DNA of 20,328 nt from Candidatus Rifleibacteriota bacterium. GTDB lineage: Bacteria; Muiribacteriota; Ozemobacteria; Ozemobacterales; Ozemobacteraceae. Location: the NCBI GenBank assembly GCA_003446455.1, contig DMAR01000444.1:1-20328 (forward strand). The letters are read 5' to 3'. Made by a program: the position numbers and the translations under genes. The notes under the pieces were generated by a model, which was not told where the DNA came from, made no database searches, and saw only the letters and a program-made list of their open reading frames with translations. Every line of letters starts with the position of its first letter. Position 1 is the first letter of the stretch. This document shows, piece after piece, positions 18,022 through 18,135 of the stretch.

Positions 18022-18090
18022 TCAGAGATCGACGCCGATTTCAAGCGACAGTACAATAGTCAGAACAGTAGCCAGAAATATACTTGCCAT
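18022..18090 (-). CDS. Small hydrophobic peptide, 22 aa (MASIFLATVLTIVLSLEIGVDL); a 26-aa form (MEKK-) is possible from an ATG at 18102
   Basis: GGAG 7 nt upstream of ATG 18090. Its own near-consensus promoter and terminator (see adjacent features). Lies inside the 68-aa track ORF 18022..18228, whose N-terminal part does not look coding. Confidence 0.45.
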   Translation of the reverse strand: MASIFLATVLTIVLSLEIGVDL

Positions 18091-18106
18091 TTTTTTCTCC
18101 ATACTC

Positions 18107-18135
18107 ATAATACCGCATACTCTATTTATCGGCAA
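18107..18135 (-). promoter_or_regulatory. Minus-strand sigma70-like promoter: -35 TTGCCG (18135-18130), 17-bp spacer, -10 TATTAT (18112-18107); predicted TSS about 18100, giving an 11-nt leader
   Basis: Seen directly on the reverse complement (TTGCCGATAAATAGAGTATGCGGTATTATGAGTATGGAGAAAAAAATG). Confidence 0.45.

Follow-up and report, generated by a model that had tools for sequence, protein, structure and literature searches.

A 22-codon gene for a predicted membrane microprotein, conserved beside a SpoIID/LytB-like gene in Candidatus Riflebacteria and preceded by a putative sigma-28-type promoter

Small membrane proteins made of one hydrophobic helix, such as KdpF (29 residues), CydX (37 residues), AcrZ (49 residues), MgtS (31 residues) and the eukaryotic sarcolipin, are strongly conserved for their size, and genes of the KdpF/CydX/AcrZ/MgtS type are commonly missed by gene callers. 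A comparable size class is occupied by the type I toxins (Ibs, ShoB, TisB, Ldr, Fst and AapA1), which are hydrophobic peptides of 19-35 residues produced from a stand-alone short transcript and are also left unannotated. Here, we describe a gene of 22 codons for a predicted membrane microprotein that has these features in common with both classes. It is located in a stretch of 20,328 nucleotides, hereafter designated as the window, from Candidatus Rifleibacteriota bacterium (contig DMAR01000444.1, assembly GCA_003446455.1), where it is convergent with a gene encoding an exported SpoIID/LytB-like protein (Table 1). Comparison with related loci indicates that this new phylum-restricted microprotein gene is real, and we infer a biological function from its sequence features.

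Table 1. Coordinates of the microprotein gene, its predicted signals, its neighbours and other features of the window
Feature	Position	Strand	Details
Microprotein coding sequence	18022..18090	-	ATG at 18090, 22 codons and TGA (18024-18022); translation MASIFLATVLTIVLSLEIGVDL
Shine-Dalgarno sequence GGAG	18097..18100	-	6 nt before ATG; within the invariant block G(A/G)GTATGGAG
Predicted 5' leader, about 28 nt	18091..18118	-	assumes that transcription starts 8 nt past the sigma-28-type -10
Putative sigma-28 (FliA/SigD)-type -10 element GCCGATAA	18126..18133	-	overlaps TTGCCG (18130-18135)
Putative sigma-28-type -35-like element TTAACTTT	18146..18153	-	consensus TAAAGTTT; 12 nt upstream of GCCGATAA
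Sigma-70-like "-35" TTGCCG	18135-18130	-	17-nt spacer to TATTAT
Sigma-70-like "-10" TATTAT	18112-18107	-	present in the window, not conserved
Bidirectional intrinsic terminator	17967..18005	both	13-bp hairpin, stem 18005-17973, with an A-run at one flank and a T-run at the other
SpoIID/LytB-like gene	16725..17930	+	convergent; exported product with signal peptide; weak Pfam PF08486 match
cutA	18227..18544	+	divergent; Pfam CutA1, E = 7.8e-36
cutA promoter TTGCAT-17-TAAACT	18181-18226	+	sigma-70-like, conserved
cutA stop / uvrD ATG (TGAATG)	18542-18547	+	separated by one base
Promoter of second small gene	13274-13301	+	TAAACTTT-N12-GCCGATAC, upstream of a 49-codon reading frame whose ATG is 40 nt away
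Second small gene	13274-13540	+	AGGAGG 13328-13333; ATG 13342 to stop 13491; 49 residues, MCAQELVALFRFSGNSCPACQRIVSRYERTLNLTDDDMEHLEQCILSKP; four Cys including CxxC; hairpin terminator after the gene
Reading frame with Major Vault Protein domains	138-2642	+	834 residues; MVP shoulder E = 7e-30, Vault_3 E = 1.7e-7
Two adjacent paralogous B12-binding radical SAM genes	2710-5402	-	448 and 449 residues; overlapping stop/start codons

An initial annotation of the window had proposed at this place a seemingly complete transcription unit for an almost purely hydrophobic 22-residue peptide, divergent from cutA and of a class that annotation routinely overlooks. All the elements that it had named were recovered on the minus strand, where TATTAT, GAGTAT, GGAG, AAAAAA and ATG follow each other in this order (region read, 17900-18260), with cutA on the plus strand; the unit as such, self-contained and monocistronic, was upheld by comparison with relatives. 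The terminator hairpin begins 16 nt past the microprotein TGA, and a UvrD-type helicase gene comes next after cutA. Taken as a single sequence, none of these elements is statistically remarkable. The sigma-70-like pair TTGCCG-17-TATTAT matches at 9/12 positions, which is the lowest score that the promoter scan reports, and there are 13 such sites per 3 kb versus 3.3 in shuffled sequences; the 4.3-kb region around the microprotein is overlapped by 73 open reading frames (ORFs) of at least 20 residues. The case depends on comparison with 26 related loci.

Searching a genome collection with the SpoIID-like protein returned six loci, all from Candidatus Riflebacteria metagenome-assembled genomes, with identities of 94, 83, 72, 71, 70 and 70%. 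A scan of metagenomes with the back-translated sequence FLATVLTIVLS, third positions being left free, returned ten stretches, every one of which contained a complete 22-codon ORF with the same Shine-Dalgarno (SD) sequence and terminator (zero chance matches) and, wherever the contig extends far enough, placed it between the SpoIID-like and cutA genes. A more distant set was drawn from SpoIID-like homologues down to 35% identity, ten of whose contigs were taken, and nine of these had a small ORF at the same place and in the same orientation. Overall, 25/26 Riflebacteria loci have, at the same position and convergent with a SpoIID/LytB-like gene, an ORF of 22-25 codons. Each locus has a single copy of it, always within the same gene neighbourhood, while the identity of the SpoIID-like neighbour falls from 94% to 37%. 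Peptides encoded at the more distant loci, with the identity of the adjacent SpoIID-like protein, are MAGLFLATVLTIVLSFELGMDA (L017, 66%), MQTLPLFIATVLTIFLSFEITADL (L018, 59%), MSILPLFLATVLTIFLSFEMTVDL (L025, 54%), MGTLPLFLATVLTIFLSCEITME (L019, 49%), MTTIPLFFATVFSIFLSLEYTKDGE (L020, 46%), MTSMPLMLATVLTMILTYEITIES (L024 and L029, the latter named Ca. Ozemobacteraceae, 44%), MSTVPLFFATVLTVLLTFEMSLDL (L021, 42%) and MVSASAMFATMLTLLLTINMTFDL (L022, 37%). One Ozemobacteraceae genome has the microprotein ORF together with GCCGATAG.

The SpoIID/LytB-like gene, on whose homologues precomputed PF08486 matches exist, is the sole constant neighbour, and the microprotein gene follows its 3' end wherever present. 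cutA is not an obligate partner, as it is absent from L020 and, together with uvrD, from L022, two loci that keep the microprotein gene. The most distant locus sampled (L023, AT-rich, 35% SpoIID-like identity) has no microprotein ORF downstream of the SpoIID-like gene (3871-4025) and is followed by different genes; in this lineage the microprotein gene was either lost or relocated. At L019, the peptide is 62% identical to that of the window, compared with 49% for the SpoIID-like protein, 36% for CutA, 38% for the TPR protein and 62% for UvrD, which suggests that the peptide is at least as conserved as its neighbours. As far as sampled, the family appears confined to the candidate phylum Riflebacteria, and the pattern of loci points to a gene vertically inherited at a fixed chromosomal position across that phylum. 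Two loci differ in the spacer between the convergent genes. At L018 (4278-4290), only 7 nt separate the stop codons of the microprotein and SpoIID-like genes, and this gap holds no terminator hairpin, so the two mRNAs must overlap, unlike in the window. At L022, a 14-nt unit (GTCGTCGTGAAACA or a variant of it) is repeated in tandem about nine times within the spacer (about 4450-4590, plus coordinates).

Evidence that the ORF encodes a protein was obtained from its pattern of variation. Three-base periodicity was assessed in the seven sequences found by synteny only, avoiding the bias of the pattern search. In these sequences, variable sites at codon positions 1, 2 and 3 numbered 7, 1 and 15 of 21 each (binomial p = 0.0017), and all ten variable sites within codons 5-15 were synonymous. 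The summed ratio of nonsynonymous to synonymous variation (pN/pS) was 0.147 in the ORF frame and 0.24 in its mirror antisense frame; the other four frames gave 0.58-7.6 and had stops. Indels in distant homologues are whole codons, namely a gain of two close to the N-terminus and a gain or loss of one at the C-terminus, and both start and stop codons are conserved across homologues. The SD block is invariant in the 14 aligned close sequences, and all distant loci have GGAG, GGAGG or AAGGAG 6-12 nt before the ATG. The initial annotation had named beforehand the finding that would speak against a gene, a reading frame not conserved in relatives. This was not seen: the frame is kept in 25/26 loci with mostly synonymous variation. 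These patterns indicate that the 22-codon frame is a real protein-coding gene under purifying selection. Longer and opposite frames were considered and rejected. In-frame upstream ATGs (MSMEKK...) occur only in the window and its 94% relative, and most other loci have a stop 1-7 codons upstream of the ATG with no alternative start; the 68-residue extended ORF (18228-18022) and the MSMEKK... starts were ruled out, since in most relatives the frame upstream of the ATG is either broken by stops or shifted. The antisense ORF at 18008-18166 on the plus strand, which shares wobble positions with the microprotein frame, was ruled out by its unconserved start and stop and its higher pN/pS. In several loci, the first codon of the mirror antisense frame, at the sense stop codon, is itself a stop; the frame is also shifted downstream by leader indels of 1-2 nt and has no conserved SD.

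The proposal that the gene had been missed by annotation was confirmed. An exact look-up of the 19 peptide variants in a collection of about 15 billion proteins found a single one, as an unnamed 24-residue IMG call, and the 68-residue extended ORF was absent from the same collection. No gene is annotated at the microprotein position in the NCBI Ozemobacteraceae record. Three variants of the peptide had no match at E <= 10 in Pfam or NCBIfam, a search of the PDB with the family profile gave none at E <= 10, and PADLOC gave none with the peptides. Rfam at E <= 10 produced sub-threshold matches only, the better-scoring ones lying on the terminator hairpin. The microprotein is thus almost never annotated and belongs to no known family of the libraries searched.

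The strong bidirectional terminator of the initial annotation also stood. In 14 sequences, 99.4% of the cells of the stem are paired and four pairs show compensatory double changes (for example, GCGCAG/CTGCGC to ACACAG/CTGTGT), a combination of pairing and covariation that was reached by 0/500 shuffles. This covariation indicates that the terminator is real. As the symmetry of its A-run and T-run is also conserved, it should stop both convergent transcripts, that of the microprotein and that of the SpoIID-like gene.

The promoter probably has to be reassigned. In the alignment of 14 sequences, the invariant upstream block is TGCCGAT, and the position of TATTAT is occupied by TATTAT, TAATAT, TATCGC, TATCAT, TAGCAT, TATTGA or CTTAAG. 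In the distant loci, the sigma-70 register decays to 2-3/6 matches at the -35 (4/6 in L019) and 1-3/6 at the -10. The 8-mer GCCGATAA, which is matched 8/8 in the window, gives the best match (6-8/8) in 20/20 distinct upstream regions, 23-37 nt before the ATG. This 8-mer is the consensus -10 of sigma-28 (FliA) promoters (PMC12784957), and in the Pseudomonas aeruginosa fliC sigma-28 promoter complex the -10 lies at -15 to -8 and TCTAAAG at -36 to -30 (PMC12784957). In the window, the arrangement TTAACTTT-N12-GCCGATAA places TAAC at -34 to -31. A -35 TAAA at a spacing of 14-16 nt is matched at >=3/4 positions in 17/20 loci and 4/4 in five, these loci not being independent of phylogeny or AT richness. 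The GCCGATAA -10 is that of late-class promoters of the sigma-28 (FliA/SigD/WhiG) type, and the TAAA-like -35 at canonical spacing resembles theirs. Because the GCCGATAA-like 8-mer persists in all distinct upstream regions while the sigma-70 register decays, we consider it reasonably likely that the gene has a sigma-28-type promoter with a transcription start near 18118 and a leader of about 28 nt. On the same grounds, the sigma-70 promoter TTGCCG-17-TATTAT of the initial annotation is probably a wrong assignment, and the start on ATGGAG with an 11-nt leader that had been derived from it would be replaced.

Independent support for this assignment comes from a second small gene in the window, also seemingly unannotated, which is preceded by a textbook promoter of the same type (Table 1). 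Promoter and ORF are conserved in L001, L002, L004, L005, L009 and L012, and the promoter is kept in these six fetched loci as four distinct sequences (TAAAATTT and TAAAGTAT variants); the 49-residue product has no Pfam or NCBIfam family match. No sigma-28-type promoter was seen for the SpoIID-like gene in the window. As for flagella in the phylum, the literature on Riflebacteria gave indirect statements only, among them the recovery of flgV, a gene of the flagellar superoperon, from 'Ozemobacteria' (PMC11607428). The best sigma-70-like match of the region is a plus-strand TTGCCA-16-CATAAT (18084-18111, 10/12), which lies on the strand opposite the start codon and SD of the microprotein and is directed toward cutA; it was rejected as unconserved (5-10/12 across loci).

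The peptide itself has a simple composition. Among the 19 aligned variants, M1, A7, T8 and L14 are invariant and V9, L10, T11 and E17 nearly invariant; Ser or Thr occupies position 15 in every variant, and position 21 is mostly Asp and otherwise Glu, except in L020 (Lys). The grand average of hydropathy (GRAVY) is 0.7-1.95 and the uncharged run 16-18 residues across the variants, with values of 1.95 and 16 for the 22-residue peptide of the window. A basic residue occurs in one variant only, the side chains carry a net charge of -2 in every variant except one, and the C-terminal tail is acidic (E17, D/E21). On a helical wheel, A7, T11, S15, T8 and L14 fall at 0, 40, 80, 100 and 340 degrees, on one face of about 120 degrees. 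An Ala/Thr/Ser stripe spaced i, i+4, i+8 resembles helix-helix packing motifs. As the conserved residues A7, T8, T11, L14 and S/T15 form one contiguous face, packing against another membrane helix is proposed.

Based on these features, the product is most likely a one-helix membrane microprotein. The reading that we favour, with moderate confidence, is a monocistronic gene whose sigma-28-type promoter drives a single-helix membrane microprotein of 22 residues (22-25 in relatives) that packs against a larger membrane partner. Transcription would start near 18118 from the sigma-28 (FliA)-type TTAACTTT-N12-GCCGATAA promoter, giving an mRNA of about 150 nt with an unstructured leader of about 28 nt and an exposed GGAG, and would end at the terminator common to the SpoIID/LytB-like gene. 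The peptide would then insert into the cytoplasmic membrane and work there as an accessory or regulatory subunit, packing either against one of the transmembrane helices in a larger protein or complex or against itself. Should the promoter be correctly assigned, this partner would belong to the late flagellar, motility or autolysin regulon. The small membrane-protein regulators that the initial annotation had offered as one alternative fit the data. The small/polar face of the microprotein suggests helix-helix packing with a larger membrane protein, as in KdpF, CydX, AcrZ and MgtS. Yet it has no sequence match to KdpF, CydX/YbgT, AcrZ or MgtS in Pfam, NCBIfam or the PDB, and is shorter, net negative and free of basic flanking residues. 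Its gene also differs from theirs in having its own promoter and terminator, with SpoIID-like, CutA and UvrD genes as neighbours and no operon with a candidate partner. Several points weigh against the favoured reading. The -35 of the window is imperfect, being TAAC rather than TAAA (3/4), and the sigma-70-like TTGCCG-17-TATNAT of close relatives overlaps the sigma-28-like element in such a way that sequence alone cannot separate the two. With 16 residues, the uncharged run is short for a membrane-spanning helix, the gene stands in no operon with any other gene, and the mirror antisense frame also stays open with a lowish pN/pS (0.24).

A more specific proposal, which we put forward as tentative, is that the microprotein may be a Riflebacteria-specific, sigma-28-controlled component or regulator of motility and envelope remodelling, acting as a 22-residue anionic helix in the stator, the export gate or the SpoIID/LytB-type cell-wall machinery. 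The sigma-D (sigma-28) regulon of Bacillus subtilis includes lytABC, and LytB carries a SpoIID/LytB domain. The microprotein gene resembles this arrangement in always adjoining a SpoIID/LytB-domain gene, and a link between sigma-28, envelope remodelling and the peptide is conceivable by analogy. Broad synteny around the microprotein gene is conserved anyway, and the adjacency of the SpoIID-like gene proves little. To our knowledge, no sigma-28 regulon member of the size and type of the microprotein has been described. A precedent for a very small envelope protein as an essential flagellar factor is PflE of Campylobacter jejuni, a 57-residue protein essential for flagellar motor assembly (bioRxiv 10.1101/2025.04.02.646747). 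PflE differs in being a lipoprotein, whereas the microprotein has 22 residues, no lipobox or cysteine and no homology to it.

Other explanations differ in how much of the favoured reading they would replace. The same microprotein might be expressed from a constitutive sigma-70-type promoter with a leader of about 11 nt; its role would then be that of an accessory subunit in some housekeeping membrane complex unrelated to motility. We regard this as rather unlikely, while recognizing that the TTGCCG/TATTAT pair, at 9/12 in the window, is matched at 8-9/12 in most close relatives, and that the neighbouring cutA has a sigma-70-like promoter with a similarly short leader, since TTGCAT-17-TAAACT ends about 6 nt before its GGAGG. 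Its -10 is poorly conserved even in close relatives (TATCGC, TATTGA, CTTAAG), and both hexamers retain 1-3/6 matches in distant loci, whereas xxCGATxx persists. A sigma-70 promoter would also leave unexplained both the invariant 'ATA' after TTGCCG and the presence of the same 8-mer with a textbook TAAA -35 before the second small gene. A more radical alternative holds that the ORF is fortuitous and that the conserved element is a small RNA or a cis-regulatory element. Sigma-28-dependent small RNAs are known in Escherichia coli, the unit is short and terminated, and a weak internal hairpin is predicted. This hairpin shows no compensatory changes, and the three-base periodicity of substitutions, a pN/pS lowest in the ORF frame among all six, whole-codon indels and the conservation of ATG, stop and SD spacing make a non-protein element hardly credible.

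The type I toxin class, to which the initial annotation had also compared the peptide, would make it a small pore-forming or membrane-depolarising hydrophobic peptide silenced by an antisense RNA. Size and hydrophobicity are indeed those of the Ibs, TisB and ShoB-class toxins, promoter-like antisense hexamers occur within the ORF (TCGACG-17-TACAAT, 7-9/12 in 13 sequences), and the convergent SpoIID-like mRNA has the terminator hairpin in common with the microprotein gene. These hexamers, however, follow from the Ile-Val and Gly-Val-Asp codons and vary along with synonymous substitutions in them. Folding of 20 orthologous transcripts disclosed no common SD-sequestering structure: the probability that the SD is unpaired varied from 0.07 to 0.89 between orthologues, with no common partner, and the RNAalifold consensus contained no conserved helix involving the SD or leader, only the terminator and a weak intragenic hairpin. 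No Rfam family scored above threshold as an antitoxin RNA, the sub-threshold matches being terminator-like, and PADLOC returned none. The initial annotation had suggested that the 3' end of the SpoIID-like transcript could supply the antisense RNA; this mRNA overlaps the terminator hairpin only, and readthrough is disfavoured because the shared hairpin is a conserved bidirectional terminator that would block it. The gene also has no phage association: in viral contigs, a first search pattern found no match and a second found three unrelated matches inside a longer frame. Type I toxins further differ in their antitoxin RNA, long structured 5' untranslated region, SD sequestration or cationic residues, and in a patchy distribution that is often multi-copy or linked to mobile elements, where the microprotein has no antitoxin RNA match, a predicted leader of at most about 28 nt, no conserved SD sequestration and no basic residues, and is encoded by a single-copy gene under strong purifying selection, vertically conserved at a fixed locus phylum-wide. 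The microprotein does not look like a toxin, and we consider this idea unlikely, indeed improbable. Even less probable is an exported precursor of a short hydrophobic signalling peptide, similar to the streptococcal SHP pheromones, from which an intramembrane protease would release the C-terminal E-I-G-x-D-L. The microprotein resembles streptococcal SHPs in its 22-25 residues, its hydrophobic body and a conserved acidic residue before a short C-terminal segment. No Rgg-type regulator, peptide exporter or Opp genes are found nearby, the microprotein lacks the basic N-terminus that such precursors usually have, and conservation is highest in the hydrophobic core A7-S15 rather than in the C-terminal tail.

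Elsewhere in the window are other features (Table 1), including a reading frame that matches eukaryotic-type Major Vault Protein domains; a vault-like protein is uncommon in a bacterial genome.

According to one report, no other phylum has as high a density of unknown gene families as Riflebacteria (PMC10849945). Catalogues of such families are built from called genes, and this microprotein is almost never called. A gene of 69 bp that is conserved like its housekeeping neighbours and missing from essentially all annotations is a candidate phylum-level marker gene. The comparison also illustrates how phylogenetic footprinting can be turned against a plausible sigma-70 promoter call made on a single sequence. 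For experiments, the locus offers a concrete small-protein family with a defined conserved helix face and a sigma-28 hypothesis; if the proposed role in motility and envelope remodelling is true, it would be a flagellar-regulon microprotein of a kind not described in any model organism.

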